Translations under genes and position numbers: made by a program
Source of the DNA: Polyangiaceae bacterium
GTDB taxonomy: Bacteria > Myxococcota_A > Polyangia > Polyangiales > Polyangiaceae
Direction of reading: 5' to 3'
Length of the DNA: 64,000 nt
NCBI GenBank assembly: GCA_033763455.1
Contig: JANRKO010000033.1
Span: forward strand, 96,001 to 160,000
In this document: positions 3,249 to 31,779 of the stretch, piece by piece
How the letters are laid out: the number at the start of each line of letters is the position of its first letter
Numbering within the stretch: position 1 is the stretch's first letter
The notes under the pieces: model-generated
The model's database searches: none
Told to the model about the DNA's origin: nothing
What the model saw: only the letters and a program-made list of their open reading frames with translations

Positions 3249-3542
3249 AGCACTTACACTCACGTACCCAACAAGCAGAGGGGTGTGGCGCCTCCACACG
3301 AACACGCGGAGGAAGCGCGTGGAATGAGAGAGTAGCATTGCTAGGTCCTCGTATCGGTAGGGCCGTGAGTATACGCAACGAATGTAAGCTCTCGCGGTTG
3401 CAAGAATCTCGCAAAGCAGGAAAGCGGCGCCGCCCGGCTTCGGTACTTTCGAGCTATTGAGGTTGTTCCCGAGCTCCACCCCGAGTTGACACCACCAGGA
3501 AGGGGCACCGAATGCTAAGGCTCAAATGAAGGTTGCTGTCGG

Positions 3543-5495: not shown

Positions 5496-5565
5496 CACTT
5501 AACGTAACGCGGCCTCGCGAGGTTGAAGCGCGAGCCCCGGCCCCCCGGGCGCGAACAAATAGAGG

Positions 5566-15488: not shown

Positions 15489-15489
15489 A

Positions 15490-16233: not shown

Positions 16234-16775
16234 GCCTCTCTAAAGTCGCTGACCGCTACGCCCAAGCCATCTTCGACCTGGGCCAAGAGCGCGGGCAACT
16301 CCCGCAAATGACGCGGGAACTTCGCAGTTTTTCAGATGCATTCATGCAGAGCGAGAGCCTCCGGGCCACGCTTGCGAACCCGCTTGTAACCGCAGCCCAG
16401 CGCCAATCCGTGTTGGTAACGCTCGCCGCAAAGCTGGGGCTAAGCCAGCTGACGTTGAACGCGATTCGAGTGGTCGCGCTGCGGCACCGGCTAGACGCGC
16501 TCGACGACATTGCGCAGCGCCTGGAACAACTCGCTGACACGCAAGCGGGCATCGTTCGCGCGACGGTCACCAGTGCGGCGGCGCTTGCTCCTGATTTCTT
16601 GGCTCAGCTTACCCGAGCCTTGGAAACCTCAACGGGCAAGAAAGTGCTCGTCGAAAGCCACGTTGACCCGAGCCTGATCGCCGGAATCACGACCCGAATC
16701 CGCGATAACACCATCGATGGCAGCCTCAAGGGGCGCCTATCCGATCTTCAGAAAAAGCTACTTCAGGCGTCCTAA
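16230..16775 (+). CDS. atpH: F0F1 ATP synthase subunit delta
   Basis: VADRYAQAIF, ATVTSA, VDPSLIAGI..IDGSLKGRL. Confidence 0.95.
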   Translation: MSLSKVADRYAQAIFDLGQERGQLPQMTRELRSFSDAFMQSESLRATLANPLVTAAQRQSVLVTLAAKLGLSQLTLNAIRVVALRHRLDALDDIAQRLEQLADTQAGIVRATVTSAAALAPDFLAQLTRALETSTGKKVLVESHVDPSLIAGITTRIRDNTIDGSLKGRLSDLQKKLLQAS

Positions 16776-16805
16776 CCGCGCCCCCAACCTACCGGAATAC
16801 TTATC

Positions 16806-18485
16806 ATGCAGCTCAGCGCCGACGAAATCTCATCGATCATCAAGCAACAGATCCAAAACTTCGATCAGACCGCTCTGGTCACCGAAACGGGCACGGTGCT
16901 CACCAGCGGTGACGGTATCGCACGCGTACACGGCTTGAGTGCCGCTATGGCTGGTGAGCTTGTGGAGTTCGCTGGGGGTATCTACGGGCTTGTGCTCAAC
17001 CTTGAGCAGGACAACGTGGGCGTTGCAGTGCTCGGTGAGTCTCGCGAAATCAAAGAGGGCGACCCAGTCAAGCGTACGGGACGCATCGCTGACATCGCGG
17101 TTGGCGATGCCATTTTGGGTCGCGTTGTGAACGCGCTCGGGCAGCCCATTGATGGCAAGGGCCCTATCGAAAGCAAGGATCGCCGACGCATCGAGGTAAA
17201 GGCTCCGGGCATCATCGCTCGCCAGTCTGTGAAAGAGCCGATGCAAACCGGGTTGAAAGCCATCGACGCAATGATTCCCGTGGGTCGCGGGCAGCGCGAG
17301 CTCATCATTGGGGACCGCCAAACCGGCAAAACGGCTATCGCCATCGACACCATTATCAATCAGAAGGGCAAAGGCGTTTACTGCGTCTATGTCGCCATCG
17401 GGCAAAAGGCCTCCACCGTAGCTCAGCTCGTCGATAAGCTGCGCGCGGCAGGAGCGCTTGAGTACACCACGGTCGTTGTCGCAACGGCCACCGAAACCGC
17501 GCCGCTGCAATTCCTGGCTCCGTACACCGGCGTCACGATCGGCGAATTTTTCCGAGACACAGGGCGCCACGCGCTTTGCATCTACGACGATCTCTCCAAG
17601 CAAGCCGTCGCTTATCGCCAGCTCTCGTTGCTACTGCGACGTCCCCCGGGTCGCGAAGCTTACCCCGGTGACGTTTTCTACATTCACTCCCGCCTGCTTG
17701 AGCGCGCCGCCAAGATGGCTGAGCGCTGGTTCGTGGTGGCTAAGGGCACGAGCGTAAAGGCCGGAGATCCGGACTTCGTAGGCGTAGACGGCAAAGCGCA
17801 CATTGGCAGCGAAGGCAAAGAAGGCGCCGAGAAAGCCCTCGCAGCACGGGCAGATAAGGACAACCTAGAGGTCGCCAAAGATCCGTTCTCTGGTGGTTCA
17901 CTTACAGCGCTGCCGATTGTTGAAACCCAGGCCGGCGACGTTTCAGCCTACATCCCCACCAACGTAATCTCGATCACGGACGGACAGATCTTCCTGGAAA
18001 GCGACCTTTTTTACTCGGGCGTGCGTCCCGCGATTAACGTGGGCATTTCCGTAAGCCGCGTGGGTGGCAACGCCCAAATCAAGGCCATGAAGAAGATCTC
18101 GGGCACCCTTCGCCTCGATCTCGCTCAGTACCGCGAAAAAGCAGCTTTTGCTCAGTTCGCGAGCGACCTCGATGCGGCTACGCGAGCGCAGTTGGAACGC
18201 GGGCAAAGGCTCGTCGAGTTGCTGAAGCAGGGGCAGTACCAGCCGCTCTCGATCGAGAAGCAGGTAGTAATCATCTACGCAGGTACTCAAGGGTTCGTGG
18301 ACAAAGTGCCGGTTGAAGCCCTTCGAGCGTACGAAGCCGAGCTCTACCTCTACCTCGAAGAGAAGCACTCAAGCGTGCTCCCTAGCATCGCCGACAAACG
18401 CGAAATCACCGATAGCATTAAGAAAGACCTCGACGCCGCGCTCAAGGCGTTCACCGAAAACTTCGTCGCCAGCCGGAAAGCGTAA
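16806..18485 (+). CDS. atpA: F0F1 ATP synthase subunit alpha, with large internal insertion
   Basis: GDRQTGKT P-loop, [28 protein letters not shown]. Confidence 0.99.
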
Positions 18486-18487
18486 TC

Positions 18488-19405
18488 GTGGCAAATCTTA
18501 AGGACATTCGCCGTCGCATCGCCAGCGTCAAATCGACGCAGAAGATCACACGCGCCATGAAAATGGTGGCTGGTGCTCGCTTGAATCGGGCACAGCAGCG
18601 CATCAGTGCGATACGTCCTTACGCGGTTGCAACGGGAAAAGTTCTTGCTGAAGTCACCAACCGTAGCGCCAGCGATGACGACACTTCGGCGACGGATGTC
18701 GATCATCCGCTCTTGGCTCGCCGTCCCGAAAAGAGCCTGCTCTTTGTCGTCATCACGAGCGATCGCGGTCTGTGCGGCGCCTTCAACTCGAGCATTCTGC
18801 GCCACGCCGAGCGCCTCTGGCACGAGAACGAAGCCCGCGGCGTTAAAGTGCAATTCGCGGTCATTGGACGCAAAGGGCGCGAGTACCTCTCTCGCAGAGG
18901 AGCGCCCATCCTCCAGGTGTTTGAGAAGGTGTGGGATGATCTTTCGCTTGAACAGGCGCGAAATGTTGGACGCGTAGTTCTCCGCCCGCTAGTGAGCGGC
19001 GAGGTGGACGCGGTGTACCTGGTGTACAACGAATTCAAGAGCGCAATGACTCAACGGGTGACCGCTGAAGCGCTGTTCCCTCTGGCTCAAGATACGAGCG
19101 CCTCGCCAAGCGCTCCCGACGGCCATGGTGAAGCACCTCCGGAGCTGGATTTCCTGTTCGAGCCCAACAAGGAAGCTTTGCTTGAGCGTTTGGTCCCCAT
19201 GTACGTGGAGATCACCCTACTGCGAGCCCTTCTGGAATCGATGGCTTCCGAACTGGGAGCCCGCATGACGGCGATGGATTCAGCGACCAAAAACGCCGCT
19301 GACATGATCGCCAAGCTTACGCTCAAATACAACCGAGCTCGCCAGGCCGCCATCACCACAGAGCTCATGGAAATCATCGGCGGCGCCGAAGCTCTGAATT
19401 CTTAG
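18488..19405 (+). CDS. atpG: F0F1 ATP synthase subunit gamma
   Basis: KITRAMKMVA, SDRGLCGAFN, YNRARQAAITTELMEIIGGAEAL. Confidence 0.98.
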   Translation: MANLKDIRRRIASVKSTQKITRAMKMVAGARLNRAQQRISAIRPYAVATGKVLAEVTNRSASDDDTSATDVDHPLLARRPEKSLLFVVITSDRGLCGAFNSSILRHAERLWHENEARGVKVQFAVIGRKGREYLSRRGAPILQVFEKVWDDLSLEQARNVGRVVLRPLVSGEVDAVYLVYNEFKSAMTQRVTAEALFPLAQDTSASPSAPDGHGEAPPELDFLFEPNKEALLERLVPMYVEITLLRALLESMASELGARMTAMDSATKNAADMIAKLTLKYNRARQAAITTELMEIIGGAEALNS

Positions 19406-19546
19406 GTGTTATAGCGCCTCTCTGGTGGGGCAAAGTGCCTCGCTGAGGCGATAAGGAAGCGCGAGCACCTGCGACACAGGTCTGCGCGCAGCACTTTATG
19501 AAAGCGGCACAAGGCCGTCATCTAGCGTCGCTACGGTTCGCGACTT

Positions 19547-20602
19547 ATGGGTCGAGCGATGTATCGACGCTCACACGCGACTCTTGCTGTGCTGGTCGCC
19601 TTGGGACTGCTCGCGTGGACGTTCCGGCATGCCCAACTCGATCAAATAGCTGCGCTTTTGGCGCGGCTCCATCCAGCTGCCCTTCCACTCGTTCTAGTTC
19701 CGTACGCTCTTGCAGTAAGCAGTGAGGCATCTGGCTGGCGAAGCGCCATCCTCCGTCTGGGACATAGAGTGCCATTTTGGAGGCTTTTGGGAGTCCGTCT
19801 GAAGACGGAGGCTCTTTCACTCACTCTGCCGCTGGGACAGCTCGTGTGCGATTCTGCCACACCCGCCTTACTCCAACGCGAAGGGCTCCCGCTTGCGGCC
19901 GGAGTTGCTGCAGTGGGGGTCCGCAAGTACCTCCTCGCGCTATCGCAGGCGTTGTTTTTATTGTTCGCATTTTTTCTCGGTCATTCAGCACTAACAAGAG
20001 CATCGCAGAAGCTTGTAGGTTCGGCTGTTTTGCAGTGGTTGCCACTCCTGGCCGCCTTAATGCTGGGAGCTGTGGCCATTGTGTTGGGTTCGGCGCTGAG
20101 CCGAGGTGCGCTCGCTACTTTCACCCTGAGGGTGTTGTTGCGAGTTCCGAGTGAAGCTTTTCGACGCGTTCTATTCCCCGCTTCGCCGCATTTCTCTGAA
20201 ACCGACAGTACTCTGCAGCTATTCTTCCGTCGCCGAGTCAGCCCAACCCAGGTGGCACGCATTATGCTTGTGGGGGTTATGGAGTCCGTTGAGACCTGGG
20301 TGATCTTGAGCCTTCTCAATGCTGACTTGAGCTTATCGGACGTGATCGGCTTCGAGGTTCTCCTCAGCTTCATGCGCAGCCTCGTTATCCTAGTTCCGGC
20401 GGGGCTTGGCATTCAGGACCTGGGTTATCTCGCCTTCTTCAGGGCACTCGGCGTAGCCGATCCCGTCTCCACAGCCGCTGCCTTTAGCCTACTGAAGCGA
20501 GGCAAGGAGCTTTTCTGGGCCGGCATTGGTTACGGGCTTTTTGCACTGCGACGCCCTTTCCCGTTAACGCCCTCCAACTTTAGGACCAACTCGACCTTAT
20601 GA
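19547..20602 (+). CDS. Lysylphosphatidylglycerol synthase TM-domain (flippase-like) membrane protein
   Basis: Multiple TM helices; family-like motif VPAGLGIQDLGY..LGV..AAAFSLLKRGKELFW; ATGA overlap with the next gene. Confidence 0.75.
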   Translation: MGRAMYRRSHATLAVLVALGLLAWTFRHAQLDQIAALLARLHPAALPLVLVPYALAVSSEASGWRSAILRLGHRVPFWRLLGVRLKTEALSLTLPLGQLVCDSATPALLQREGLPLAAGVAAVGVRKYLLALSQALFLLFAFFLGHSALTRASQKLVGSAVLQWLPLLAALMLGAVAIVLGSALSRGALATFTLRVLLRVPSEAFRRVLFPASPHFSETDSTLQLFFRRRVSPTQVARIMLVGVMESVETWVILSLLNADLSLSDVIGFEVLLSFMRSLVILVPAGLGIQDLGYLAFFRALGVADPVSTAAAFSLLKRGKELFWAGIGYGLFALRRPFPLTPSNFRTNSTL

Positions 20603-21588
20603 CCCTCCGCGTTCTTTACATCTGCGGCTCCCCCAACCAGACCACGCAAATGCACCAAATATCGAGCTTTTTGCCCGAAGCGGAAGCCAATTTTACACCC
20701 TATTATGGCGGCCCAATCCTAGATTTCGCCAAGAAGGCGCGGTTGTGCGAGTTTTCCATCGCGGGCACCAAGCTGACGCGGCGATGCCTCGACTACCTTG
20801 AGGCCCACTCGCTTAAGCTGGACATTGGAGGTCGCAGGGGGCCGTATGATCTGGTCCTCACTTGTTCAGACGTTGTGGTGCCAGACAACATTCTCGGGGT
20901 ACCCATCGTGCTAGTGCAGGAAGGGATCCTGGATCCGAATAACGTGCTGGGAGAATTAGTGCGAAAATTCCCAGTGCTTCCACGCTGGATCGCGGGAACC
21001 TCCACCACCGGCATGAGCCGCGCATATTCGCGCTTCTGCGTCGCGAGTGCAGGCTATAAGCGCTACTTCGCAAGGCGCGGTGCCCCGGAAGAGCGTCTGG
21101 TTGTTACCGGCATCCCCAACTTCGACAACTGCGCGCGTTACCTCACCAATGACTTTCCACATCGTGGCTATGCATTGGTGTGCACGTCGGATGCACGGGA
21201 GACGCTGAAGCTCGACAAACGACGTGAATTTGTGGAGTGGGCAGTTGAAAAGGCGGGAGGGCGGCCACTGATCTTCAAACTCCACCCGAACGAAAATCTT
21301 CGGCGTGCAACCCGGGAGCTCAAACGCTGGGTGCCCGATGCGCTCGTTTTCGAAAGCGGCGACACCAACGCCATGATTGCCAACGCGGAGGTCCTGATTA
21401 CCCAGTATTCTACCGTCGTGTTCGTGGGCCTGGCGCTCGGGAAGGAGTGTTATTCGTACCACCCTATGGAGGAATTAGTGGAGCTCGTGCCGGAGCAAAA
21501 CGGTGAGGCCGCCAAACGGATTGCCGACGTTTGCCGAGACCTTATGGCGGCAAGAGGCGCTGACTTGCGCGACGGAGTTGCCGCGTGA
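20599..21588 (+). CDS. GT-B-fold-like protein, candidate CMP-ulosonate transferase
   Basis: VLVQEG, VVTGIPNFD, IFKLHPNE, LITQYSTV resemble the HP and S-S/T motifs of CMP-sugar and CDP-glycerol transferases; overlaps a cytidylyltransferase gene. Confidence 0.5.
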   Translation: MTLRVLYICGSPNQTTQMHQISSFLPEAEANFTPYYGGPILDFAKKARLCEFSIAGTKLTRRCLDYLEAHSLKLDIGGRRGPYDLVLTCSDVVVPDNILGVPIVLVQEGILDPNNVLGELVRKFPVLPRWIAGTSTTGMSRAYSRFCVASAGYKRYFARRGAPEERLVVTGIPNFDNCARYLTNDFPHRGYALVCTSDARETLKLDKRREFVEWAVEKAGGRPLIFKLHPNENLRRATRELKRWVPDALVFESGDTNAMIANAEVLITQYSTVVFVGLALGKECYSYHPMEELVELVPEQNGEAAKRIADVCRDLMAARGADLRDGVAA

Positions 21589-22412
21589 GGACCCTCGTGA
21601 TCGTACAGGCCCGGCTCGGGTCCTCTCGCCTGCCAGGGAAAGTGCTGTTACCACTCCTCGGGGAGCCAGTCTTGATTCGAATGTTGGACCGGATTCGAGC
21701 GGCTAAAAGCGCATTCGACGTACTGGTTGCTACCACTTTGGAACCCGAAGACGCGGCCATCGTGAGCCTGTGCCAAGAACGCAAAATTGCCGTATTTCGC
21801 GGCAATACCGCAGATCTTTTGGATCGTCACTATCGCGCAGCTTTGCAATTCCAGGCCGAGCTCGTCGTTAAGATCCCGTCCGACTGTCCACTGGTAGATC
21901 CGGCAGCACTTGATTGCGTGCTTGGGTACTTTCTAGAGCACAAGCGCGAGTTCGACTTCGTCAGCAACCTCCAACCCCAGAGCTGGCCCGACGGCAACGA
22001 CGTTGAGATCATGACGTTCGAAGCCCTTAGGACCGCATGGCTCGAAGCCGGGAGGCCGTTTGAGCGCGAACACACGACTCCCTTCATTTGGGATAATCCG
22101 GAGCGCTTTCGTATCGGAAATGTGCTCTACCCGGGCGGGCGAGACTACTCGGCAAGCCACCGTTTCGTATTAGATTACGAAGCCGACTACCAGTTCATCC
22201 AAGCTATTTTTGAGCGTCTTCTCCCGGAGTTTGGCCCCGCGTTTTCATTGTTACAGATCTTAGATTTGCTGAAGCGAGAGCCCGACCTTCTGGCGCTCAA
22301 CCAAGCCCATCTCGGCGTGTGTTGGCAACAAAAGCACCGGCAAGAACTCAAAACTCTCCACGCCGTTCAATCGAGTCCATCGAGCACAGGAACACGCCAT
22401 GCCGCCGGCTAA
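21585..22412 (+). CDS. SpsF-like cytidylyltransferase (CTP_transf_3 family)
   Basis: IVQARLGSSRLPGKVL, RG..DLLDRHY, SDCPLVDP, REHTTPFI, LDYEADY. Confidence 0.85.
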   Translation: MRTLVIVQARLGSSRLPGKVLLPLLGEPVLIRMLDRIRAAKSAFDVLVATTLEPEDAAIVSLCQERKIAVFRGNTADLLDRHYRAALQFQAELVVKIPSDCPLVDPAALDCVLGYFLEHKREFDFVSNLQPQSWPDGNDVEIMTFEALRTAWLEAGRPFEREHTTPFIWDNPERFRIGNVLYPGGRDYSASHRFVLDYEADYQFIQAIFERLLPEFGPAFSLLQILDLLKREPDLLALNQAHLGVCWQQKHRQELKTLHAVQSSPSSTGTRHAAG

Positions 22413-23700
22413 CGAACTCGCTTTACCTCAAATCTCCGAGTCCAACGCCTGGTATGCGCGAGCTCGCGCAGTAATCCCCGGGGCGACACAAACGCTGGCC
22501 AAAGGAGCCTCTCAGTATGTGGATGGCGTGGCGCCCAAGTTCCTACAACGAGGAAAAGGCTGTCGGGTGTGGGATGTTGATGGCAACGAATTCATCGATC
22601 TCACGATGGCCGTGGGGCCCCTTTCCCTTGGCTACTGTTACGACAAAGTGGACGAAGCAATCCGTCGTCAGCTCGAAGATGGTATCACCTTCTCCCTCGT
22701 CCATCCCTTGGAGGTGGAGGTGGCTGAGCTTCTTAAAGGTCACATTCCAGGCGCCGAAATGGTGCGGTTCAGCAAAACGGGCTGCGACGTGACGAGTGCG
22801 GCGGTAAGGCTTGCGCGGGCCTTCACCGGCAGAAAAGTGGTCGCGTGTTCGGGCTACCACGGTTGGCATGACTGGTACATCGGCACCACCCCGCGAAACC
22901 TCGGAGTGCCGAGCGAGGTGCAAGCTCTCACACGCAAGTTTGCTTACAACGATCTCTCTTCCGTCAGGGCTATTCTGGACCAAGATGTTGCGGCCATCAT
23001 TCTTGAGCCAGTGCTGTTTGAGGAACCGCGGGACGGATTTCTGCAGGAGCTTCGCCAACTCTGCACGCAGAACGGAACACTGCTCGTCTTCGACGAAATG
23101 TGGACAGGCTTCCGCTTAGGCCTTGGAGGGGCTCAGGCATACTTCGATGTCGGAGCGGACCTAGCTTGTTTCTCCAAGGCAGTCGCCAATGGCATGCCCT
23201 TGAGCGTTCTCAGCGGTCGCCGAGAGATAATGAGTTTGCTAGAAAATGATGTTTTCTTCTACACCACGTTTGGCGGCGAAGCACTTTCGCTGGCGGCAGC
23301 AAAAGCAACTCTGCAGGAGCTCAGGGACCAACGTGTACCTCTGCACCTCGCTGAGATGGGCGCTAAGCTGCAGCAAGGTTACAATCAACTTGCAGAGAAG
23401 CACGAGCTACCATTCACACGCTGCGTAGGATTGCCCTGTCGAACACTTGTTACGTTCGATGAAAAAGTCGTCGACCCGCTGCTTGCCAAATCTCTGCTCC
23501 AGCAAGAACTTATCCGCCATGGGGTGTTGTGGACCGGGTTTCACAACATGAGCTTTTCTCACCAGCACTCCGATGTAGAACGCATTCTCGCCGGCTACGA
23601 CTCCGCCCTTCCGGTGCTCGCCCGCGCCGTCCAAAAGAACACGCTGCGGAGTGAAATCCAAGGCACGCCGGTGCAGCCGGTATTTCGGAAAACCCAATAA
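22399..23700 (+). CDS. Class III PLP aminotransferase (glutamate-1-semialdehyde aminomutase-like, sugar-cluster type)
   Basis: RVWDVDGNEFID, GYHGWHDW, LVFDEMWTGFR, FSKAVANGMP (PLP lysine), TTFGGE. Confidence 0.85.
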   Translation: MPPANELALPQISESNAWYARARAVIPGATQTLAKGASQYVDGVAPKFLQRGKGCRVWDVDGNEFIDLTMAVGPLSLGYCYDKVDEAIRRQLEDGITFSLVHPLEVEVAELLKGHIPGAEMVRFSKTGCDVTSAAVRLARAFTGRKVVACSGYHGWHDWYIGTTPRNLGVPSEVQALTRKFAYNDLSSVRAILDQDVAAIILEPVLFEEPRDGFLQELRQLCTQNGTLLVFDEMWTGFRLGLGGAQAYFDVGADLACFSKAVANGMPLSVLSGRREIMSLLENDVFFYTTFGGEALSLAAAKATLQELRDQRVPLHLAEMGAKLQQGYNQLAEKHELPFTRCVGLPCRTLVTFDEKVVDPLLAKSLLQQELIRHGVLWTGFHNMSFSHQHSDVERILAGYDSALPVLARAVQKNTLRSEIQGTPVQPVFRKTQ

Positions 23701-23770
23701 CACTGTCGCAAGAGGTTTCGCCGCTCTGTCACCCAAGTCCGAGCAGGTCGTAACGAGTCTGTCATCAGCC

Positions 23771-24580
23771 ATGTTTGATCTCACACACAAGATCGCCGTA
23801 GTCACCGGAGCCCTCGGGCTACTTGGGCGCGAGCACTGTTTGGCCCTCTTGAGCAACGGGGCCACGGTAGTTGTTGCCGATTTGGACGGCGCCGCGGCCC
23901 GCAGCCTTGCTGGAGAACTGGCAGAAGACTCTGAAGGCCGCGTCCTTGGCCTTGGCGTGGACGTGGGGGCAAAAGCATCTGTTGATGAAATGACGCGTGA
24001 AATCCTCGGGCGTTTCCAACGAGTTGACGTGCTGGTGAACAACGCAGCCGTTGACGACAAGGTGGAATCCCCGGCGCTGGCACTAGAGCAAAGCCGCTTC
24101 GAGAATTATCCGCTTGAGTCCTGGGAACGTCTCATCCGCGTGAACCTGACGGGAGCCTTCCTATGCGCTCAAAGTCTTGCTCCCGCGATGGCTCGCCGCG
24201 GTAGCGGGAGCATCATCAACGTGGCTTCCACTTATGGAATCGTGGCTCCCAATCAAGATCTTTACGTCGATCAACAAGGCCGACAGCAGTTCTTCAAGTC
24301 ACCGGCCTACCCGGTGTCAAAAGCCGGCCTTTTGCACCTCACGCGCTACCTCGCAGCCTACTATGGGCAATCTGGAGTGCGGGCGAACTCGCTTTCCCCG
24401 GGGGGCGTAGCGAACGGACAAAGCTCGGACTTTCAATCCGAATATGCCAGCCGAGTGCCCCTTAGGCGCATGGCGAACAAGTCAGACTACCGAGGCGCGT
24501 TGGTATTCCTCGCCAGCGATGAATCCGCCTATATGACCGGCGCAAACTTGGTAGTGGACGGTGGTTGGACAGCATGGTGA
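23771..24580 (+). CDS. SDR-family oxidoreductase (sugar-cluster type)
   Basis: VTGALGLLG, NNAA, ASTYG, YPVSK, MTGANLVVDGG; ATG 23771 chosen as start. Confidence 0.85.
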   Translation: MFDLTHKIAVVTGALGLLGREHCLALLSNGATVVVADLDGAAARSLAGELAEDSEGRVLGLGVDVGAKASVDEMTREILGRFQRVDVLVNNAAVDDKVESPALALEQSRFENYPLESWERLIRVNLTGAFLCAQSLAPAMARRGSGSIINVASTYGIVAPNQDLYVDQQGRQQFFKSPAYPVSKAGLLHLTRYLAAYYGQSGVRANSLSPGGVANGQSSDFQSEYASRVPLRRMANKSDYRGALVFLASDESAYMTGANLVVDGGWTAW

Positions 24581-25098
24581 GAACGCTCCCACAAGTTCAA
24601 TTGAGCGAACGCGCTCGCAGAATTCGCCTACTAGTGAGTGACGTAGATGGCGTACTCACGCCAGCACAAGTTTACTACAGCGAACGCGGCGAAGAGCTCA
24701 AGCGATTCAGCCTCCGCGACGGAATGGGTACTGAGCTCCTACGCGTGGCGGGCATAGAAACGGCCTATTTTACGCGTGAAAACTGCCCAATTGCGCTCCG
24801 GCGGGCGCAGAAGCTGAAGCTTGCCCACCTGTGGCTCGGTGTGCACGACAAGGCTCGCGCGTTGCCGGAGCTTCTGCTTTCAGCGCGCTACCGACTCGGC
24901 GAAGTGGCCTACATGGGCGACGACGTGAATGATCTTGAAGCCATGGAGCTCGTGGGTGAAGTGGGGCTCACGGGAGCTCCGAGCGACGCCGTGGCTAGCG
25001 TGTTGGCCGCAGCTCACAAGGTAACAGCAAAAAGTGGCGGCCAAGGCTGTTTCCGAGAGTTCGCGGACTGGATTTTAGCCACTCGCCAGGAGGCATAG
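24574..25098 (+). CDS. KdsC/YrbI-family HAD phosphatase (ulosonate-phosphate phosphatase)
   Basis: DVDGVLT, FSLRDG, YMGDDVNDL, GGQGCFRE. Confidence 0.85.
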   Translation: MVRTLPQVQLSERARRIRLLVSDVDGVLTPAQVYYSERGEELKRFSLRDGMGTELLRVAGIETAYFTRENCPIALRRAQKLKLAHLWLGVHDKARALPELLLSARYRLGEVAYMGDDVNDLEAMELVGEVGLTGAPSDAVASVLAAAHKVTAKSGGQGCFREFADWILATRQEA

Positions 25099-25102
25099 AC
25101 TT

Positions 25103-26065
25103 ATGACAACGCACCCAATGTTCGATGAAATGACACGACATTCCACGCTGATGACGCGTTTACCGGAAACCGGAGACACGCAAGCTCGAGTAAAAATCGG
25201 CAACCGCGATGTCGGTGAGGGGGAGCCCGTCTATTTGATTGCGGAGATCGGCATTAATCACAACGGCGACCTCGATATCGCCAAACGCCTCATTTCTGGC
25301 GCCAAGCGCGCCGGTTGCGACGCCGTCAAGTTCCAGAAGCGAACCCCGGAAATCTGCGTACCCAAAAGCCAGTGGGATCTGATGCGAGATACGCCCTGGG
25401 GGCGCCTAACGTACATCGATTACAAGCGACGCATCGAGTTCGGCGAAGCGGAATACCGGGAGATCGACCGATTTTGCCGACGAGAAGGCATCGATTGGTT
25501 TGCCTCCTGTTGGGACCCGGAGTCTGTAGAGTTTATCGAGAAATTTGAGCCCCCATGTTACAAGATCGCATCGGCCTCAATAACGGACATTGAACTTCTG
25601 CAGAAGCTCAAGTCCATAGGTCGCCCCGCGATACTTTCCACTGGTATGTCCACCTCGGCCGAAGTGCACACTGCAGTTCAAACTCTGGGCATGGAGGGCC
25701 TCTTGATCGCGCACGCAACCTCCACGTACCCGTGCCCGCTAGAAGAGCTCAATCTACGAATGATTCAGACTCTGAAGCTCCGCTACCCGAACTGTCCGGT
25801 GGGGTACTCGGGGCATGAAACAGGGCTTGCTCCTACGTGGGCTGCGGTGGCTATGGGGGCCACGTTTGTCGAACGTCACATCACGCTCGACCGTGCCATG
25901 TGGGGAACAGACCACGCGGCGTCCGTAGAGCTGAGCGGCCTTCAAAGGTTGGTTGCTCAGGTGCGAGACATCGAAAAAGCTTTCGGCGATGGCATCAAGT
26001 GCGTTTACCCGAGTGAGGTTCCCTACCGCGAGAAATTGCGACGAGTAGCCTCCACGGAAGCCTGA
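25103..26065 (+). CDS. NeuB-family PEP-dependent ulosonate synthase lacking the C-terminal antifreeze-like domain
   Basis: IAEIGINHNGD, AVKFQKR, KIASA, ILSTGMS, GYSGHE, VERHITLDR; protein ends shortly after GDGIK. Confidence 0.9.
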   Translation: MTTHPMFDEMTRHSTLMTRLPETGDTQARVKIGNRDVGEGEPVYLIAEIGINHNGDLDIAKRLISGAKRAGCDAVKFQKRTPEICVPKSQWDLMRDTPWGRLTYIDYKRRIEFGEAEYREIDRFCRREGIDWFASCWDPESVEFIEKFEPPCYKIASASITDIELLQKLKSIGRPAILSTGMSTSAEVHTAVQTLGMEGLLIAHATSTYPCPLEELNLRMIQTLKLRYPNCPVGYSGHETGLAPTWAAVAMGATFVERHITLDRAMWGTDHAASVELSGLQRLVAQVRDIEKAFGDGIKCVYPSEVPYREKLRRVASTEA

Positions 26066-26078
26066 AAAGAGAAAGTGG

Positions 26079-26873
26079 GTGAGCTCTACGGCCTTCATCA
26101 CATTCGGCTCGATCACGCTAGGCGCAGCGCTTCTCGTCGGGTTGGAGCGTTTTCGCCCGTACGAGCCGAGGCAACGTTTCTTAAGGCCGGGCCTCGGAAC
26201 GGACCTCTTCTTGTATGCGATCGCGCAAAGCTATGTCTTGAGTTTGGTCATTGCCGGCATCATCGCTGGGATCAGCGCGAACGTGAGCTGGTTCGACGGA
26301 GGTTTGGTGAACTCGTGGCCTCTCTGGGTGCAGCTCGCTTTCTTCTTCGTGGTGCACGATTTCTATATTTACTGGTTTCACCGGCTGCAACACAAATCGG
26401 ACACTCTCTGGCGCCTTCACGAAGCGCACCATTCTGTGAAAGATGTGGATTGGCTCTCCGGGGCACGCTCCCACGCACTCGAGATCTTGATCAATCAAAC
26501 GATAGAATTTGCCCCGATGCTTCTTTTGGGGGCAGCGCCAGAAGTCATTGTAGCGAAAGGCGTCCTGGACGCCCTTTGGGGGATGTACATTCATTCAAAC
26601 ATCGACGTACGATCCGGCGTGCTGCAGTACGTTATTAACGGCCCGGAAATGCACCGCTGGCATCACGCTCGGGAAATTAAAGCGCCGGGCATGAACTTCG
26701 GCACCAAGTTGGCGATCTGGGATTGGCTCTTCGGAACGGCTTTCTTGCCGCCGGAAAAGCCCCAAGCTTATGGCCTGCCCGACATTGACTACCCAAAAGA
26801 AGGCTGGGCCGCCTACTTCTTGCACCATGTGCACTCGTTCCGGCGTTCGACGCCTCCCCAGCTACCGCCCTAA
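26079..26873 (+). CDS. Sterol desaturase/fatty acid hydroxylase family membrane enzyme
   Basis: His boxes HRLQH, HEAHH, HSN, HRWHH; NFG..LAIWDWLFGT. Confidence 0.85.
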   Translation: MSSTAFITFGSITLGAALLVGLERFRPYEPRQRFLRPGLGTDLFLYAIAQSYVLSLVIAGIIAGISANVSWFDGGLVNSWPLWVQLAFFFVVHDFYIYWFHRLQHKSDTLWRLHEAHHSVKDVDWLSGARSHALEILINQTIEFAPMLLLGAAPEVIVAKGVLDALWGMYIHSNIDVRSGVLQYVINGPEMHRWHHAREIKAPGMNFGTKLAIWDWLFGTAFLPPEKPQAYGLPDIDYPKEGWAAYFLHHVHSFRRSTPPQLPP

Positions 26874-28802
26874 AGCACTTCGAACACGCTGAACGAGATT
26901 CGCGGCGTCGAGACCGTGATGCTGCAATACTTCCTGATTTCGACCACACGCGGGCACGGATTCAATCCCGATGTTGTGCACCCGAACCGCGTCCAAGCCG
27001 AGGGCCGCCACGGTGGCTCCTATTAGCTGCCCCTGACCGCCCAATACATAGTGATTATCAAGCGTAAAGACATGTCGACGAGAACCCACGACGCGGGCGA
27101 GCCAAGCTTCATCGATGCGGTTCAGCCACGGTAGCGATACGACTCCCACCTGAAGCCCATGCTGAGCCTCTAGCGCCAGCGACGCATTCCAAGCTTCCGC
27201 GAGAAGTACTGGTCCGTAGGCAATGATCACGGCGTCCGCCCCTTCGCGAAGTTCGGTGCCTTTGCCCAATTCGAGCGCACTTTCGGGCAACTGGAACGGG
27301 ATTTCACAAGGAATGCTCACGAGGCGTAGCCACACGCTCGACGGTGCTCGCTCAATCGCCCACTCCAACGCACGGGCCACCTCCGCTTCCGTGGACGGCT
27401 CAAGCAAAATGAGCCCCGGGATAGCACCCACAGCAGAGATATCCCGCACAGATTGGTGGGAGTGCCCAGGGCCAGCCGGCAAGAGCCCCGCGAGCGATGC
27501 TGTGTAGATAACTCGCGAGTGTTCGGTGGCGTTGTTGTAAATCTGCTCATTGGCTCGAGTGGAGAGAAAACACGCGAAGGAATGGCAAATCGGTAGAAAG
27601 CCCTCACGTGCGAGGCTTCCAGCCTGGCTCACCATGTCCATCTCGGCGATGCCGCATTCTATGAAGCGTTCAGGGTACGCGTCGCGTGCCGGTAACTGTC
27701 CCGTATCCACCAGCAGATCCGCATCCATCACCACTAAGTTGGGAACCTTGCCCATCTGGGAAAGCAGCGCTCGCGAGTAGGCCCCGATCAAGCTCTCCTT
27801 GGGCCCAGTCGTAGGGACCGCGGCACTCTCTTGTGATTCAAAATGTAAGCGAGAAACCCCTAGAGCGTCGCATTGGCGATGAAGGCTTGCGATGAGCTCC
27901 TCTGCGGCACGTTGGTAATTTTCGGAGTCAGGTGCCCCAGAATGAAAGCGATAAAATGACACATCTGAGTCGAGGCTCGTGTGCTCCATGAACGAGACAC
28001 CGCGGCCCTTGATCGTGTGCGCTATGATTACCTGAGGTCTATCGGTTACGGCACGAGCGGCCGCTAGTATCTCGCCGAGCGACCAGTAATCGTGCCCATC
28101 CACCGAAAAGACGGCCCAACCGAAAGCCTCGAACTTTTTGACAAGATCACCAAGCTCGCTCGTCTTCGCGACGAAGGTGTCGCTTTGAAGCTTATTGTGG
28201 TCGACAATAACAGTAATCTCGGAAAGCTTGTGGTTCGCTGCCGACACCAACGATTCCCAGATCTGCCCCTCCTGAAGCTCGCCATCTCCCGTTAACACGT
28301 AGATCCTCCCTGATCGCTCCTTTTGACGGCGCGCCCAAGCCATGCCCTTGGCCTTGGAAATGCCCATCCCGAGGGATCCAGTATTGGCCACCATCCCCGG
28401 TGTTCCAACGTCTGGATGGCCTGGCAAACCTTTGAGTACCCTCAACTGGTGCAACAAGGCGAAGGGCAACAACCCGAGGCCAAGCCGCACGGCGTACAGA
28501 CCAGGGGCGTCATGACCCTTGGAAGAAAAGTAGACGTTCGCATTTGGCGCCGGGATACCAGTAGGGCTGAGTTCTAACTCATTCAGATGGAGCCAGGTGA
28601 CGATATCAAGGCTTGAGAAAGAACTGCCCAGATGCCCCGAGCCGGCTCGGGCTATCATGTACAGCACGTTCAGGCGGCAAGCATCCGCGAACAACTGCGC
28701 GCGCCGCTCGGGCTCAATCTTGAGGCTCAAAATCTGCTCAAATTGTGCCAACGGAACCCAAACTAGGTTACCGGCAACAACTTCACCCACTAGGTCGCCC
28801 AT
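26862..28802 (-). CDS. Transketolase-like ThDP enzyme with fused N- and C-terminal halves
   Basis: SGHLGSSFS, SKGH, GHPD, GSLGMG, GDGELQEGQIWE, HTIKGRG, ECGIAE, GHSHQ; 12-nt convergent overlap with the desaturase gene. Confidence 0.85.
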   Translation of the reverse strand: MGDLVGEVVAGNLVWVPLAQFEQILSLKIEPERRAQLFADACRLNVLYMIARAGSGHLGSSFSSLDIVTWLHLNELELSPTGIPAPNANVYFSSKGHDAPGLYAVRLGLGLLPFALLHQLRVLKGLPGHPDVGTPGMVANTGSLGMGISKAKGMAWARRQKERSGRIYVLTGDGELQEGQIWESLVSAANHKLSEITVIVDHNKLQSDTFVAKTSELGDLVKKFEAFGWAVFSVDGHDYWSLGEILAAARAVTDRPQVIIAHTIKGRGVSFMEHTSLDSDVSFYRFHSGAPDSENYQRAAEELIASLHRQCDALGVSRLHFESQESAAVPTTGPKESLIGAYSRALLSQMGKVPNLVVMDADLLVDTGQLPARDAYPERFIECGIAEMDMVSQAGSLAREGFLPICHSFACFLSTRANEQIYNNATEHSRVIYTASLAGLLPAGPGHSHQSVRDISAVGAIPGLILLEPSTEAEVARALEWAIERAPSSVWLRLVSIPCEIPFQLPESALELGKGTELREGADAVIIAYGPVLLAEAWNASLALEAQHGLQVGVVSLPWLNRIDEAWLARVVGSRRHVFTLDNHYVLGGQGQLIGATVAALGLDAVRVHNIGIESVPACGRNQEVLQHHGLDAANLVQRVRSALGR

Positions 28803-29045
28803 AGTTCTAACGGTTACTCCACAACAACGTTGTTGATGCGGCGCCAGCGCTGTGGCGATTGGGCAACGCAGTGAGCTGGCGTACTTGGAGCTTGCGCTGA
28901 GGAAGCATCTACGGAGGAGAGTCGCACCTAGCTGGGGTCATTACCGTCACGGTTCGGTCACTTCGACGGAGCGTGAACAAGCCGGAGACCCGGGCGCAGT
29001 CGGGCGATAACGCCGCCTGATGCAAGTCCGCAAGAATTGTACGTT

Positions 29046-29062
29046 TTGGCACGACTACTGCT
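29046..29062 (+). promoter_or_regulatory. Putative sigma54 (-24/-12) promoter
   Basis: ttGGcacgactactGCt: GG-N10-GC with a TGGCACG core, about 75 nt upstream of ATG 29136. Confidence 0.6.
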
Positions 29063-29135
29063 AATCGGCGAGGAGGCTCCGGCTTGGCCCCACCGCCCGA
29101 GCTACTCGTTCGGTGAGCCAAAGGCTCCCGTATCT

Positions 29136-29585
29136 ATGACTTTGCTACTGCTCCTTCCGCTCTTTTTGCAGGCGCTGGCAATGTTCTTCGACGAGTTCGT
29201 ATTTCATCGGGCGCGCGGGTTGCCAAGGTGGGAGCGTCTGGGGCACCCGCTTGATACTTTGACAGTGGCTGTTTGCTATGGATGGCTCGTGTCAACGCCG
29301 CCGACGCGTGCCCACGCCGTTGCGGTGTACGTTGTACTTTGTGCCTTTTCGTGCCTGTTCATTACGAAAGACGAGTTCGTGCACGCGCGCCTATGCAAGC
29401 CCGCCGAGGCGTGGCTTCACGCGGTATTGTTTGTACTTCATCCAGCGGTATTCTTGGCCCTTGGAATTATCTGGATGCGCGGAGGCAACGAGTGGATTCC
29501 AAAGGCCGTGCTTGGTGCAACGTTGGCTATGATGATGTACCAGCTCATTTACTGGAGCCCGCGCTGGCACTGGGGTGACAAGTGA
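29136..29585 (+). CDS. Small polytopic membrane protein with duplicated DEF..H / ExxxH motifs
   Basis: Hydrophobic helices; DEFVFH..ERLGH and DEFVH..EAWLH; ATG 29136 chosen as start. Confidence 0.65.
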   Translation: MTLLLLLPLFLQALAMFFDEFVFHRARGLPRWERLGHPLDTLTVAVCYGWLVSTPPTRAHAVAVYVVLCAFSCLFITKDEFVHARLCKPAEAWLHAVLFVLHPAVFLALGIIWMRGGNEWIPKAVLGATLAMMMYQLIYWSPRWHWGDK

Positions 29586-29624
29586 GAATGTCTTGCTTGG
29601 CGTGAGTGTTTCACGCGCCACCAC

Positions 29625-29654
29625 GCCTCAGTCGCGCTGATTTGCCTCAGTCGC
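29625..29654. repeat. 11-bp direct repeat gcctcagtcgc x2, candidate enhancer-binding-protein site
   Basis: Identical copies at 29625-29635 and 29644-29654, 105-134 nt upstream of the -24 element at 29759. Confidence 0.45.
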
Positions 29655-29757
29655 CCCAATATCCACACCCGTCATCGTTTGCCGAGGGTGCCTACGCCAC
29701 TCTGTTTTCCCTTCCTCCCCCGCTAACAAACCGTTGTGCGCGGCCAGGCCAGCATGA

Positions 29758-29773
29758 GGGCACGTAAGTTGCA
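29758..29773 (+). promoter_or_regulatory. Putative sigma54 (-24/-12) promoter of the type III PKS
   Basis: gGGcacgtaagttGCa matches (T)GGCACG-N4-TTGC(A/T) except for the first base; 50 nt upstream of ATG 29824. Confidence 0.6.
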
Positions 29774-29823
29774 GCAACATTCGCAGAAGCGCGCCCCGCG
29801 CCCCGCGTCGCGACTAGCTCACC

Positions 29824-30993
29824 ATGCTCACCCTAACCAATTTCTCAATGCAGTCACCGCGTTTCCAAATTTCTCAGGAACGAGCGCTCGCTTGGCTCAC
29901 CGACGTGCACGCTCAGTCCGAATCCACGAAGCGAACGCTGTCTTCCGAGCAAAGGGCCGATTTCGCAGCTCGATTCAGTAAACTGGTGAAGCGTTGCGCC
30001 TGCGGCCCAGACAAGATTGGTGCGCGCGGTCACTCGGTCGATCTCGCCTCGAAGGAGTCCGAAGATCACGCGCTTTACGACGTGGGTCGCCACCCGCAGG
30101 GGCTTGGAACGGTAGCGCGATCGCGTCTTTTCGCCGAGGTCGTCGATTCGTACTTCGAGACCGAGTACGCGGAAGAATCGACGGCGCCGAGCGAACTCAT
30201 TCATGTCACTTGTACCGGTTACGTGGCACCCAGCGGCGCGCAGCGGTTAGTCGCTAAAAAAGACTGGGGCAGTGCTACACGTGTAACGCATGCGTACCAT
30301 ATGGGTTGCTATGCCGCTCTCCCAGCTATCCGAATCGCGGCGGGCAGCTTGGGTTTACCGGCTGCGCTAGGTCCGGACAACGTTCTCCGACGCGCAGACA
30401 TCGTGCACACCGAGCTCTGCACGCTCCACCTCGATCCGAGTGATCATTCCATGGAGCAGTGCGTTGTCCAGAGCCTCTTCGGTGACGGGTTTATTCGCTA
30501 CTCGGTGTTCGACGGGAGCCACATCCCTGGGCTCTCTATCCTATCCCTGAGCGAAGACACACTCCCGGATTCGACAGGCTCCATGGGCTGGAGCGTGGGA
30601 GATTTTGGCATGCGCATGACGTTAGCACGCGACGTGCCTGAGAAGATCGCGGCCTCGCTACGTCCATTCGTCACCGCTCTGTTCCGCAAAGCCAACATCA
30701 GCGTTGCCGATAATCTTGGCAGCACTGTGTTCGCTGTGCATCCGGGTGGCCCCAAAATTATTGATCACGTTCGCGACACGCTTGCGCTAAGGAACGAACA
30801 ACTTCAGACGAGTAGGAACGTGCTGTTCGAACACGGCAATATGTCTTCAGCCACCTTGCCGCATGTATGGATGCGGATCGTTGGCGCCCCCGAAATCAGC
30901 GTGGGCACTTTGGTGCTAAGCCTCGCATTTGGGCCAGGCCTTACCGTGTGCGGTGGTCTGTTTCGCAAAACCAGAGGCAGCACCGCGCCTTAA
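29824..30993 (+). CDS. Type III polyketide synthase (chalcone synthase-like)
   Basis: Cys-His-Asn triad in HMGCYA, AVHPGG, GNMSS; also HVTCTG, ELCTLH, SLFGDG, LAFGPGLT. Confidence 0.9.
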   Translation: MLTLTNFSMQSPRFQISQERALAWLTDVHAQSESTKRTLSSEQRADFAARFSKLVKRCACGPDKIGARGHSVDLASKESEDHALYDVGRHPQGLGTVARSRLFAEVVDSYFETEYAEESTAPSELIHVTCTGYVAPSGAQRLVAKKDWGSATRVTHAYHMGCYAALPAIRIAAGSLGLPAALGPDNVLRRADIVHTELCTLHLDPSDHSMEQCVVQSLFGDGFIRYSVFDGSHIPGLSILSLSEDTLPDSTGSMGWSVGDFGMRMTLARDVPEKIAASLRPFVTALFRKANISVADNLGSTVFAVHPGGPKIIDHVRDTLALRNEQLQTSRNVLFEHGNMSSATLPHVWMRIVGAPEISVGTLVLSLAFGPGLTVCGGLFRKTRGSTAP

Positions 30994-31005
30994 GATGCTA
31001 GCAAC

Positions 31006-31779
31006 ATGACCGAAAATCCGACGCACCTAACGCCCGTGAACAACGACATCTACGCTACCCTCGGAGAGCGTTGGTACAGCGCCGAAGATGACCCTGTGGC
31101 GCTCTTGCGGGCGGAATCAAGGCTGCGCAACCCGTGGGTGGCCCAAGAAATCCGGCGCAAGCTTGGCGTCTCTTCCGCGGATATTTTGGACATCGGTTGC
31201 GGTGGCGGGTTCCTTGCTAATTACCTCGGCTCACTGGGTCATCGCGTCACCGGCCTAGACGCTTCGAACGATGCGCTGGCGGTGGCTGCCAGCCATGATT
31301 CCGGACAGACTGTTCACTACCAACAAGGTGACGCCCTACGCCTTCCCTTTGCCGACGCAACTTTTGACGTGGTATGCGCCATGGATTTTCTGGAGCACGT
31401 GGAAAACCCTGAGCAGGCGATCGCAGAGGCCGCGCGCGTACTCAGGCCGTCAGGCTTGTTCTTCTTTCATACATTCAACCGCAACCTGCTGTGCTGGCTC
31501 GTAGTGATCAAAGGGGTTGAGTGGTTTGTACGCAACACTCCCCAACGCATGCACATTTTGCGACTATTTTTGAAACCTGCAGAGGTTATTGCCTGGTGCG
31601 CCGAGCGCGGCCTCCACTCCGTTCAGGTCCGAGGGACACGGCCACAGTTTGGCTGGGCATTCTTTAGGATGTTGTTCACGCGGCGAGTTTCCGCAGAATT
31701 TAGCTTCGCTTTCACGCCTTCAACTCGACTTGGATATAGCGGAGTTGCAACGAAAACCTCAGCGGAGCCGGACGCGTGA
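31006..31779 (+). CDS. UbiG-like SAM-dependent O-methyltransferase
   Basis: ILDIGCGGGFL, VTGLD, MDFLEHV, LRPSGLFFFHTFNRN. Confidence 0.8.
   Translation: MTENPTHLTPVNNDIYATLGERWYSAEDDPVALLRAESRLRNPWVAQEIRRKLGVSSADILDIGCGGGFLANYLGSLGHRVTGLDASNDALAVAASHDSGQTVHYQQGDALRLPFADATFDVVCAMDFLEHVENPEQAIAEAARVLRPSGLFFFHTFNRNLLCWLVVIKGVEWFVRNTPQRMHILRLFLKPAEVIAWCAERGLHSVQVRGTRPQFGWAFFRMLFTRRVSAEFSFAFTPSTRLGYSGVATKTSAEPDA

Follow-up and report, generated by a model that had tools for sequence, protein, structure and literature searches.

What would a myxobacterium make with nine adjoining genes that set enzymes of sialic-acid-like sugar synthesis beside a flippase-like membrane protein, a membrane hydroxylase and a transketolase? 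The genes occupy positions 19547-28802 of a 64,000-nucleotide stretch of DNA (the window) from a Polyangiaceae bacterium (GenBank assembly GCA_033763455.1, contig JANRKO010000033.1, forward-strand positions 96,001 to 160,000). An earlier note on this DNA had read them as a system that attaches an amino-ulosonate to a lipid, and the analysis reported here largely supports the amino-ulosonate sugar and the link to the membrane, though not the identity of the lipid. We consider it on balance probable that the genes form a module building a membrane glycolipid with an amine-bearing 3-deoxy-ulosonic acid as its head group.

A nine-gene module conserved across phyla

All nine genes are present in the window, eight of them co-directional on the plus strand and the ninth convergent with them on the minus strand. 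In order they encode a flippase-like membrane protein (g1), an unnamed GT-B protein (g2), an SpsF-type cytidylyltransferase (g3), a class-III aminotransferase (g4), a short-chain dehydrogenase/reductase (SDR; g5), a KdsC-like phosphatase (g6), a NeuB-family synthase (g7), a membrane di-iron hydroxylase (g8) and a fused transketolase (g9); every family assignment in this inventory, as drawn up in the earlier note, is upheld by Pfam and NCBIfam. Neighbouring genes from g1 to g8 either overlap (by 4, 4, 14 and 16 bases) or are separated by short gaps (73, 4 and 13 bases), and the hydroxylase and transketolase genes share a 12-base convergent overlap.

In a scan of one genome per species, at least 568 genomes carry a relative of g2, and the best 80 loci were used for synteny analysis by tblastn and clustering of open reading frames (ORFs). 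The 23 loci that reach less than 8.8 kb downstream of g2 were dropped, and genes were counted in the other 57. Besides g2 itself (57/57), these encode the SpsF cytidylyltransferase (56/57), the class-III aminotransferase, the SDR and a NeuB without the SAF domain (55/57 each), a transketolase (51/57; split and lying between g3 and g4 in 46, fused and adjacent in 5), the membrane di-iron hydroxylase (44/57), the KdsC-like phosphatase (41/57) and the flippase-like protein (15/57). The module loci belong to Myxococcota, Ignavibacteria, Bacteroidota, Acidobacteriota and Calditrichaeota, and the common gene order is g2, SpsF, the two subunits of a split transketolase, aminotransferase, SDR, phosphatase, NeuB and hydroxylase (for example in the annotated locus L022). 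The nine genes are one conserved module, and their co-recurrence across phyla lies far above chance. The synteny of the hydroxylase and the transketolase with this NeuB clade, which the earlier note had singled out for checking, is borne out by these counts.

Flanking genes are common only within lineages, and no polysaccharide assembly gene (Wzx/Wzy) or lipopolysaccharide (LPS) gene is conserved around the module. Likewise, no NeuC, PseB/LegB, DegT-type aminotransferase or acetyltransferase is found among the conserved genes of the 57 loci. In the window, Pfam and NCBIfam searches of the 14-36 kb region detected no DegT, PseB/LegB-type dehydratase, acetyltransferase, Wzx/Wzy or ABC exporter, in agreement with the absences listed earlier; the further statement that NeuC is missing holds with the caveat that the fold of g2 is nearest to that of NeuC.

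The source genome (6.56 Mb in 92 contigs) carries a second complete nine-gene copy (contig C62:35431-44678, locus L105) with the same order and a convergent transketolase, 77-94% identical at the protein level to the window cluster and set in a different neighbourhood. Contamination of the metagenome-assembled genome (MAG) is an unlikely source of this copy, because the two copies do not share their flanks and the genome has one copy each of atpG, GlmS and GlgC. A DesB-like fatty acid desaturase (L105:6251-7327) is encoded directly upstream of the second copy's transketolase.

Candidate enzymes of sugar-acid synthesis, oxidation and amination

Examination of the sugar enzymes reveals that none reaches the equivalog cut-off of a characterised enzyme in NCBIfam. 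The product of g7 (25103..26065, +) is a phosphoenolpyruvate (PEP)-condensing synthase (PF03102, 255.2 bits) that belongs to NeuB at the family level only, scoring 244.6 against the NeuB_NnaB model (cut-off 399.65) and 198.1 against PseI (cut-off 340.25); its best solved relative is a 290-aa synthase that likewise lacks a SAF domain (6ncs, 138 bits). The g6 protein (24565..25098, +) is a sugar-acid phosphate phosphatase of the KdsC/YrbI family (TIGR01670, 113.2 bits, over the cut-off of 106.95), whose best NCBIfam model is the Kdn-9-phosphate phosphatase (125.8 versus an equivalog cut-off of 180), with the KdsC model close behind (124.5 versus 208). The g3 protein (21585..22412, +) falls in the CMP-ulosonate synthetase family (PF02348 CTP_transf_3, 89.4 bits), with weak N-terminal matches to KdsB models of NCBIfam. 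This trio resembles the CMP-Kdn pathway with a 9-phosphate intermediate, of the Bacteroides thetaiotaomicron type, in combining a NeuB synthase, a KdsC-family phosphatase and a CTP_transf_3 synthetase. It differs in that all three window enzymes lie below the equivalog cut-offs and in that the module goes beyond them with an SDR, transketolase, aminotransferase, hydroxylase and flippase-like protein and with a new GT-B protein.

A NeuB-family synthase and an SpsF-type cytidylyltransferase are also common to the routes to N-acetylneuraminic acid (Neu5Ac), pseudaminic acid (Pse) and legionaminic acid (Leg), and the module could in principle make one of these ordinary sugars with helper genes situated elsewhere. 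We judge this very improbable, given that g7 reaches the equivalog cut-off of neither NeuB nor PseI and that the locus has none of the NeuC, PseB/LegB, DegT or N-acetyltransferase genes that mark the canonical pathways. The partners actually conserved are instead a transketolase, a class-III aminotransferase and a membrane hydroxylase.

The remaining two sugar-modifying enzymes of the plus-strand operon are those expected to oxidise and aminate. The SDR (g5, +; adh_short_C2, 169.5 bits) is PtmA/PRK09186-like (PRK09186, 177.7 versus a cut-off of 255). Its longest ORF runs from 23651, with the domain starting only at residue 47, and both the domain and the orthologues fit an ATG at 23774, which is the likely start of a gene extending over 23774..24580. 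The g4 protein (22399..23700, +) is a class-III (omega-type) aminotransferase and HemL-like paralogue (PF00202 Aminotran_3, 162.6 bits; best NCBIfam model PRK06209, 400.9 versus a cut-off of 486). Its solved relatives include glutamate-1-semialdehyde aminomutases and sugar C-6' aminotransferases (143.7 bits), and because the latter are among them, amination of a sugar aldehyde would fit this enzyme.

The last gene of the operon, g8 (26079..26873, +), encodes a putative membrane di-iron hydroxylase or desaturase (FA_hydroxylase, PF04116, 109.5 bits) with the histidine boxes HRLQH, HEAHH and HRWHH and two strongly hydrophobic N-terminal segments. Among NCBIfam models, that of the ornithine-lipid hydroxylase OlsE fits the protein best (126.7 versus a cut-off of 475).

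A variant of the module in green sulfur bacteria

A sample of 401 genomes from the phylum-level group around Stygiobacter was searched for g2 and for the FMO protein, a marker of green sulfur bacteria. A g2 relative is present in 137 of the 401 genomes; FMO-positive genomes number 98, and g2 occurs in 86 of these versus 51 of the 303 others. The FMO scores of the twelve FMO-positive genomes without a g2 match (G025, G054, G082, G090, G118, G274, G298, G302, G306, G318, G354 and G386) cluster between E 1e-204 and 1e-212, which suggests that they are a single green-sulfur lineage without the system.

In six of six green-sulfur loci, from FMO-positive genomes, g1 and g2 are followed in the operon by genes for a cytidylyltransferase like PseF, an Fe-dependent alcohol dehydrogenase (Fe-ADH) and a DegT-type aminotransferase, without the SDR, class-III aminotransferase and transketolase of the common version. 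The cytidylyltransferase is closest to PseF (106 bits versus a cut-off of 205.7), and the best solved relative of the aminotransferase is KdnA, the transaminase of 8-amino-3,8-dideoxy-octulosonate (Kdo8N) synthesis (5k8b, 260 bits; the next scores 169). The dehydrogenase is assigned to the Fe-ADH family, and no chain named KdnB is found among its solved relatives at E<=1e-15. A NeuB 64-69% identical to g7, with an adjacent KdsC-like phosphatase, is encoded elsewhere in the genome in all five green-sulfur genomes searched. No orthologues of g3, g4 or g8 were detected in these five: the best matches are 35-37% identical and HemL-like for g4 and 28-32% identical and KdsB-like for g3, and for g8 three genomes give no match and the other two only matches of 33-35%.

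This variant, with its KdnA-type aminotransferase beside an Fe-ADH, parallels the logic of the Kdo8N pathway of Shewanella oneidensis, in which a ulosonic acid is dephosphorylated, its tail oxidised to an aldehyde by KdnB, transaminated by KdnA and activated with CMP. The window cluster departs from that pathway in having an SDR, a class-III aminotransferase and a transketolase in place of the Fe-ADH/DegT pair. In both module variants the linked synthase is of the NeuB type and not of the KdsA type, and the module has its own cytidylyltransferase, GT-B protein and flippase-like protein. Because a non-orthologous oxidase/aminotransferase pair replaces the SDR and class-III enzyme while the synthase, phosphatase, proposed transferase and flippase-like protein are kept, the conserved function would appear to lie in supplying g2 with a ulosonic acid that has first been oxidised and then aminated. 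We regard this replacement as the strongest evidence for such a function, and it backs the sequence of oxidation and transamination that had been proposed earlier from the window alone.

One FMO-positive locus is a hybrid (L089; G020:C1:2488000-2507999) encoding g1, g2, an SpsF-like enzyme, a transketolase-like protein and a class-III aminotransferase, with no SDR, phosphatase, NeuB or hydroxylase match within the 20 kb examined. In another green-sulfur locus, an AMP-binding (acyl-activating) enzyme is encoded divergently from the g1-g2 operon (L083:12032-13981).

The GT-B protein and its flippase-like partner

No Pfam family reaches its cut-off on the g2 protein (20599..21588, +). Of 8000 candidates scored, 5992 qualify as homologues at E<=0.001. 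Identity to g2 is 57-98% among the best 120, and nearly all of the named ones in this group are "hypothetical". An AlphaFold2 model built from 24 sequences (pLDDT 87.4, pTM 0.87) has a GT-B fold, whose nearest solved chains are NeuC (5zlr, Z 17.8) and UDP-GlcNAc 2-epimerases (down to Z 16.2), followed by PglA (15.5), TagF (15.2), CapG, TarL (14.6), a polysialyltransferase (13.3) and WaaA (12.2). At the sequence level, a g2 profile has a single match in the PDB, the TagF-like capsule polymerase Cps3D (E 0.006), over a ...LIT(D/Q)YSS... stretch. The score of g2 against the TagF-like family Glyphos_transf (PF04464) is 16.9 bits, below the cut-off of 22.1, which two remote homologues exceed (P0190 and P0259, 28.2 and 22.2 bits). 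Weak Pfam matches to Epimerase_2, Capsule_synth and polysialyltransferase also occur within the g2 family, and the Atlas is in line with these Pfam results. The alignment shows two invariant motifs, QEG (107-109) and KLHPNE (227-232), presumably akin to the D/E-D/E-G and HP motifs of bacterial sialyl- and Kdo-transferases, a resemblance that we take as a lead only. Together these sequence and model comparisons suggest that g2 is the founding member of a GT-B family without a name, whose affinities are with enzymes that take CMP- or CDP-linked donors. As regards the comparison with sialyl- and Kdo-transferases suggested in the earlier note, a polysialyltransferase and WaaA are among the structural matches, but the closest structures are NeuC and the epimerases.

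That ranking is a ground for a different role, in which g2, as an enzyme of the NeuC/PseG kind, would feed NeuB by releasing or epimerising a nucleotide sugar, with the true transferase encoded elsewhere. Epimerase_2 is also annotated on 5 of the 120 listed homologues, and the weak matches to that family point the same way. However, g2 itself scores 12 bits against Epimerase_2 (PF02350; cut-off 30.6), and its sole sequence-profile match in the PDB is to a polymerase of the TagF type. Moreover, it is hard to see why a soluble enzyme of precursor supply should be fused to, or constantly paired with, a flippase-type protein, and the KdsC-type phosphatase argues for a phosphorylated precursor and not one released from a nucleotide sugar. 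We therefore hold this role for g2 to be improbable. The same affinities of g2 to Glyphos_transf and TagF-like enzymes could instead be read as a sign that the cytidylyltransferase makes a CDP-linked phospho-compound, from which g2 would transfer a phosphate-linked amino-polyol or sugar acid to give a phospholipid- or teichoic-acid-like product, and the phosphatase is indeed missing from 16 of the 57 loci. Against this, it is established that the group activated by CTP_transf_3 enzymes of the KdsB/NeuA/PseF type is a ulosonic acid's anomeric hydroxyl. PseF is the nearest match of the green-sulfur cytidylyltransferase, and the phosphatase, where present, is translationally coupled to NeuB. A product of this kind seems to us about as poorly favoured as the NeuC-like role.

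The case for a role of g2 at the membrane comes from its partner. The g1 protein (19547..20602, +) has about six hydrophobic segments and the LPG_synthase_TM domain, the transmembrane domain of the MprF type (PF03706, 87 bits, over the cut-off of 33.4). Its gene adjoins g2 in 20 of the 80 loci, two of these being short partial matches, and an exhaustive search of cluster representatives recovered three g1::g2 fusions (P0122, P0126 and P0127), each the representative of a separate 50%-identity cluster. In all three g2 forms the C-terminal half, and the N-terminal half is an LPG_synthase_TM domain 34-36% identical to g1 across its full length. There are two other fusions: in one, g2 is joined to part of an aminotransferase, and in the other to a stretch with weak similarity to FA_desaturase. 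Because a GT-B protein is fused to a domain of the lipid-flippase type, a membrane-located acceptor would be expected for g2. This arrangement recalls MprF, the lysyl-phosphatidylglycerol synthase with a flippase domain, in that a PF03706 domain is coupled or fused to the proposed adder of an amine-bearing group to a membrane lipid. It is unlike MprF in that the partner resembles GT-B glycosyltransferases and is not an aminoacyl-tRNA-dependent synthase, and in that flipping by g1 is at present a prediction. The fusions, along with the want of conserved polysaccharide assembly genes, sustain the earlier preference for a lipid product over an O-antigen. The synteny of the flippase-like gene gives a mixed picture, being complete in the green-sulfur loci (6/6) and extended by the fusions, but limited to 15 of the 57 full loci. 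In two Polyangiaceae loci (L069 and L075) the flippase-like gene follows the hydroxylase, at about 18.3 kb in the locus, and does not precede g2.

A link to hopanoids through the HpnL subfamily was considered and ruled out, g1 scoring far below the HpnL cut-off (TIGR03476, 91.5 versus 195.65). Green sulfur bacteria are not known to produce hopanoids, although no search for squalene-hopene cyclase was made.

The amino-ulosonic acid might also be made as proposed and yet be attached to lipid A or the LPS core, a polysaccharide or a protein, with g1 handling some other lipid-linked intermediate. Kdo8N, the only described sugar of KdnA-type chemistry, is attached to lipid A (PMC4402001). All carriers of the module fall in diderm phyla, and WaaA is among the structural matches of g2. 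Nevertheless, the module is self-contained, with no conserved LPS or polysaccharide genes in its flanks, and has in g2 a proposed transferase of its own that is naturally fused to a lipid-flippase-type domain, whereas Shewanella needs only KdnA and KdnB in addition to its normal KdsB and WaaA. We consider such an attachment unlikely, although it is the most credible of the alternatives to a membrane glycolipid made by g2 and g1.

The transketolase

The g9 gene (26862..28802, -) encodes a fused transketolase of the short, human/split type with three transketolase Pfam domains, whose best solved relative is human TKT (205 bits). Like transketolases of EC 2.2.1.1 it has the thiamine diphosphate-binding GDG motif (GDGELQEG, corresponding to GDGELSEG in the human enzyme) and the cofactor glutamate (E387, corresponding to E366), and the three active-site histidines are kept. 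It differs at the columns of human R318, S345, H416 and R474, which we take to be the residues binding the substrate phosphate: in g9 these are I339, D366, L437 and I497. The same holds for the 57 cluster-linked transketolases compared. The cofactor glutamate is present in all 57 and H449 is invariant, while the S345 column contains no serine, the H416 column no histidine, the R474 column 4 arginines and 1 lysine, and the R318 column 1 arginine among 37 ungapped sequences. This pattern of conservation indicates that g9 retains the catalytic core and lacks the sugar-phosphate pocket. Because a transketolase without such a pocket is a core gene of the module, trimming of the tail of a free sugar before amination would be a natural function, and g9 probably cuts this tail back to the aldehyde that is then aminated. 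The transketolase had been given no role in the earlier note, an omission at odds with its presence in 51 of the 57 loci.

The lipid acceptor

An aminoglycosphingolipid from Chlorobium limicola, which is a green sulfur bacterium, is cited in PMC11762602 (Jensen, Knudsen, Olson 1991). The g1-g2 operon and the presence of g2 in most FMO-positive genomes would connect the module with such a lipid; the window organism differs in being a myxobacterium with the transketolase/hydroxylase version. The simpler green-sulfur version may explain this unusual lipid, the sugar of which is reportedly neuraminic acid.

Possible ceramide synthesis was examined through alpha-oxoamine synthases. In the source genome, one green-sulfur genome and Stygiobacter, a member of this family with serine palmitoyltransferase (SPT) as its best model scores 456-475 bits, below the cut-off of 640. 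All three SPT-like genes adjoin an HpnA-like reductase, and two of the three also adjoin an unnamed 377-388-aa protein. In the source genome (C43:155703-159596; L106:5703-9596) the SPT-like gene (an ORF of 557 aa with the domain from residue 159) is followed by a 388-aa protein and the HpnA-like reductase, and the same neighbours recur in Stygiobacter (L110); the three may constitute a ceramide synthesis trio.

As a marker of co-occurrence with g2, an Spt/KBL-like match at E<=1e-100 is non-discriminating, being found in 373 of the 401 genomes. Among 20 listed genomes without such a match, 8 carry g2. Complete clusters are present in six g2 carriers that lack an Spt-like match, and the hydroxylase is included in four of these. 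Five complete-cluster carriers were re-tested, and all gave BioF-level matches only (200-226 bits) or none, the completeness of these genomes not being established. In this respect the module is unlike a ganglioside-like glycosphingolipid system, and the ceramide- or sterol-like acceptor suggested earlier is not supported.

The proposed pathway and its weak points

In light of the above observations we propose the following pathway. The SAF-less NeuB would join PEP to an aldose phosphate, as in the Kdn-9-phosphate route, and the KdsC-like phosphatase would release the sugar acid; these roles are assigned at the family level and the substrate is a conjecture. The SDR would then oxidise the sugar tail and g9 would act on the free sugar, most likely removing a terminal two-carbon ketol to leave an aldehyde, which the class-III aminotransferase would convert to a primary amine, a step to which the green-sulfur variant lends support. 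After the SpsF-type enzyme had made the CMP-sugar, g2, working with g1, would transfer it to a hydroxyl of a membrane lipid on the cytoplasmic face, and g1 would move the zwitterionic lipid outward, as MprF does with lysyl-phosphatidylglycerol; both of these steps are suggested by the fusions and the adjacency of the two genes. More speculatively, the di-iron hydroxylase might modify the lipid, possibly creating the acceptor hydroxyl, perhaps where no ceramide is available. The green-sulfur version would be simpler, the Fe-ADH reaching the aldehyde directly and the KdnA-type aminotransferase acting on it, with neither transketolase nor hydroxylase.

Several observations weigh against this scheme. 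Its steps are predictions from family membership, synteny and fusions. The flippase-like gene lies next to g2 in few of the full loci, the phosphatase is absent from more than a quarter of them and the hydroxylase from 13 of the 57, and no gene of an acceptor pathway is conserved nearby. Because complete clusters occur in genomes without an SPT-like gene, ceramide cannot be the general acceptor, though it may be the acceptor in some lineages. As regards the hydroxylase, relatives in the FA_hydroxylase family can act on polar head groups, as the match to OlsE illustrates, and the target of g8 need not be an acyl chain. The proximity of the modelled g2 fold to NeuC and the UDP-GlcNAc 2-epimerases may indicate a sugar-supplying role. 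Finally, four complete loci (L039, L051, L059 and L082) have the SDR and aminotransferase but no transketolase nearby; given these, trimming may be dispensable or the steps may follow another order. The transketolase may also extend an aldehyde instead of trimming a sugar.

A more far-reaching version of the amino-ulosonate glycolipid proposal, which we consider doubtful, would make the module the source of ganglioside-like lipids in many phyla. Their common head group would be 7-amino-3,7-dideoxy-heptulosonic acid, formed when the transketolase cuts two carbons from a Kdn-type sugar; we know of no natural occurrence of this sugar. In the green-sulfur version the tail would be aminated without being shortened, the "neuraminic acid" of the Chlorobium lipid from 1991 would be a product of this pathway, possibly the isomer 9-amino-Kdn, and the g2 family would be new CMP-ulosonate:lipid transferases working with an MprF-like flippase.

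Genomic setting of the window cluster

The nearest relatives at the cluster locus, in the scan of one genome per species, are Polyangiaceae/Polyangiales MAGs, and on this ground a cyanobacterial origin, which the gene order of the ATP synthase might suggest, is rejected. The cluster starts directly 3' of an ATP synthase operon (b', b, delta, alpha, gamma; window 14985-19405), which has no beta or epsilon gene ahead of the cluster start. A promoter and terminator scan of 19200-29900 gave nothing above shuffled sequences. On the 3' side of the transketolase (window 29037-31779) lie a gene for a protein of 182 aa that has three hydrophobic segments but matches no family, and then genes for a type III polyketide synthase (PKS) and a UbiG-like methyltransferase, which look like a lipid pair of the alkylresorcinol/alkylpyrone type. 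These three were considered as members of the module and rejected, the 182-aa protein and the PKS recurring in 0 of the 80 loci and the methyltransferase giving one weak match. The remainder of the window consists of unrelated housekeeping and regulatory genes; at 82-8624 two pairs of DUF1552 (HXXSHH) and DUF1585/1587/1588/1592/1595 proteins of the Planctomycete type flank a pectate-lyase-like protein.

Implications

A literature search turned up no paper that describes the module. Its parts all come from enzyme families already known and its general logic has precedent, although one transferase family is unnamed and the use made of the transketolase is possibly new; what is new here is the green-sulfur variant with an enzyme of the KdnA type, the g1::g2 fusions, the count of g2 in FMO-positive genomes, the carriers without an SPT-like gene and the duplication of the cluster. 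If the proposal is correct, zwitterionic, sialic-acid-like membrane lipids would be common in bacteria of soil, sediment and freshwater, an orphan lipid of green sulfur bacteria would acquire a gene basis, and a new glycosyltransferase family would be defined. A transketolase would also have been re-used to tailor a finished sugar acid. The green-sulfur version opens the way to a direct test in cultured, transformable strains. Surface lipids of this kind would bear on membrane charge, resistance to cationic peptides and recognition by phages and predators, and could serve as lipid biomarkers.

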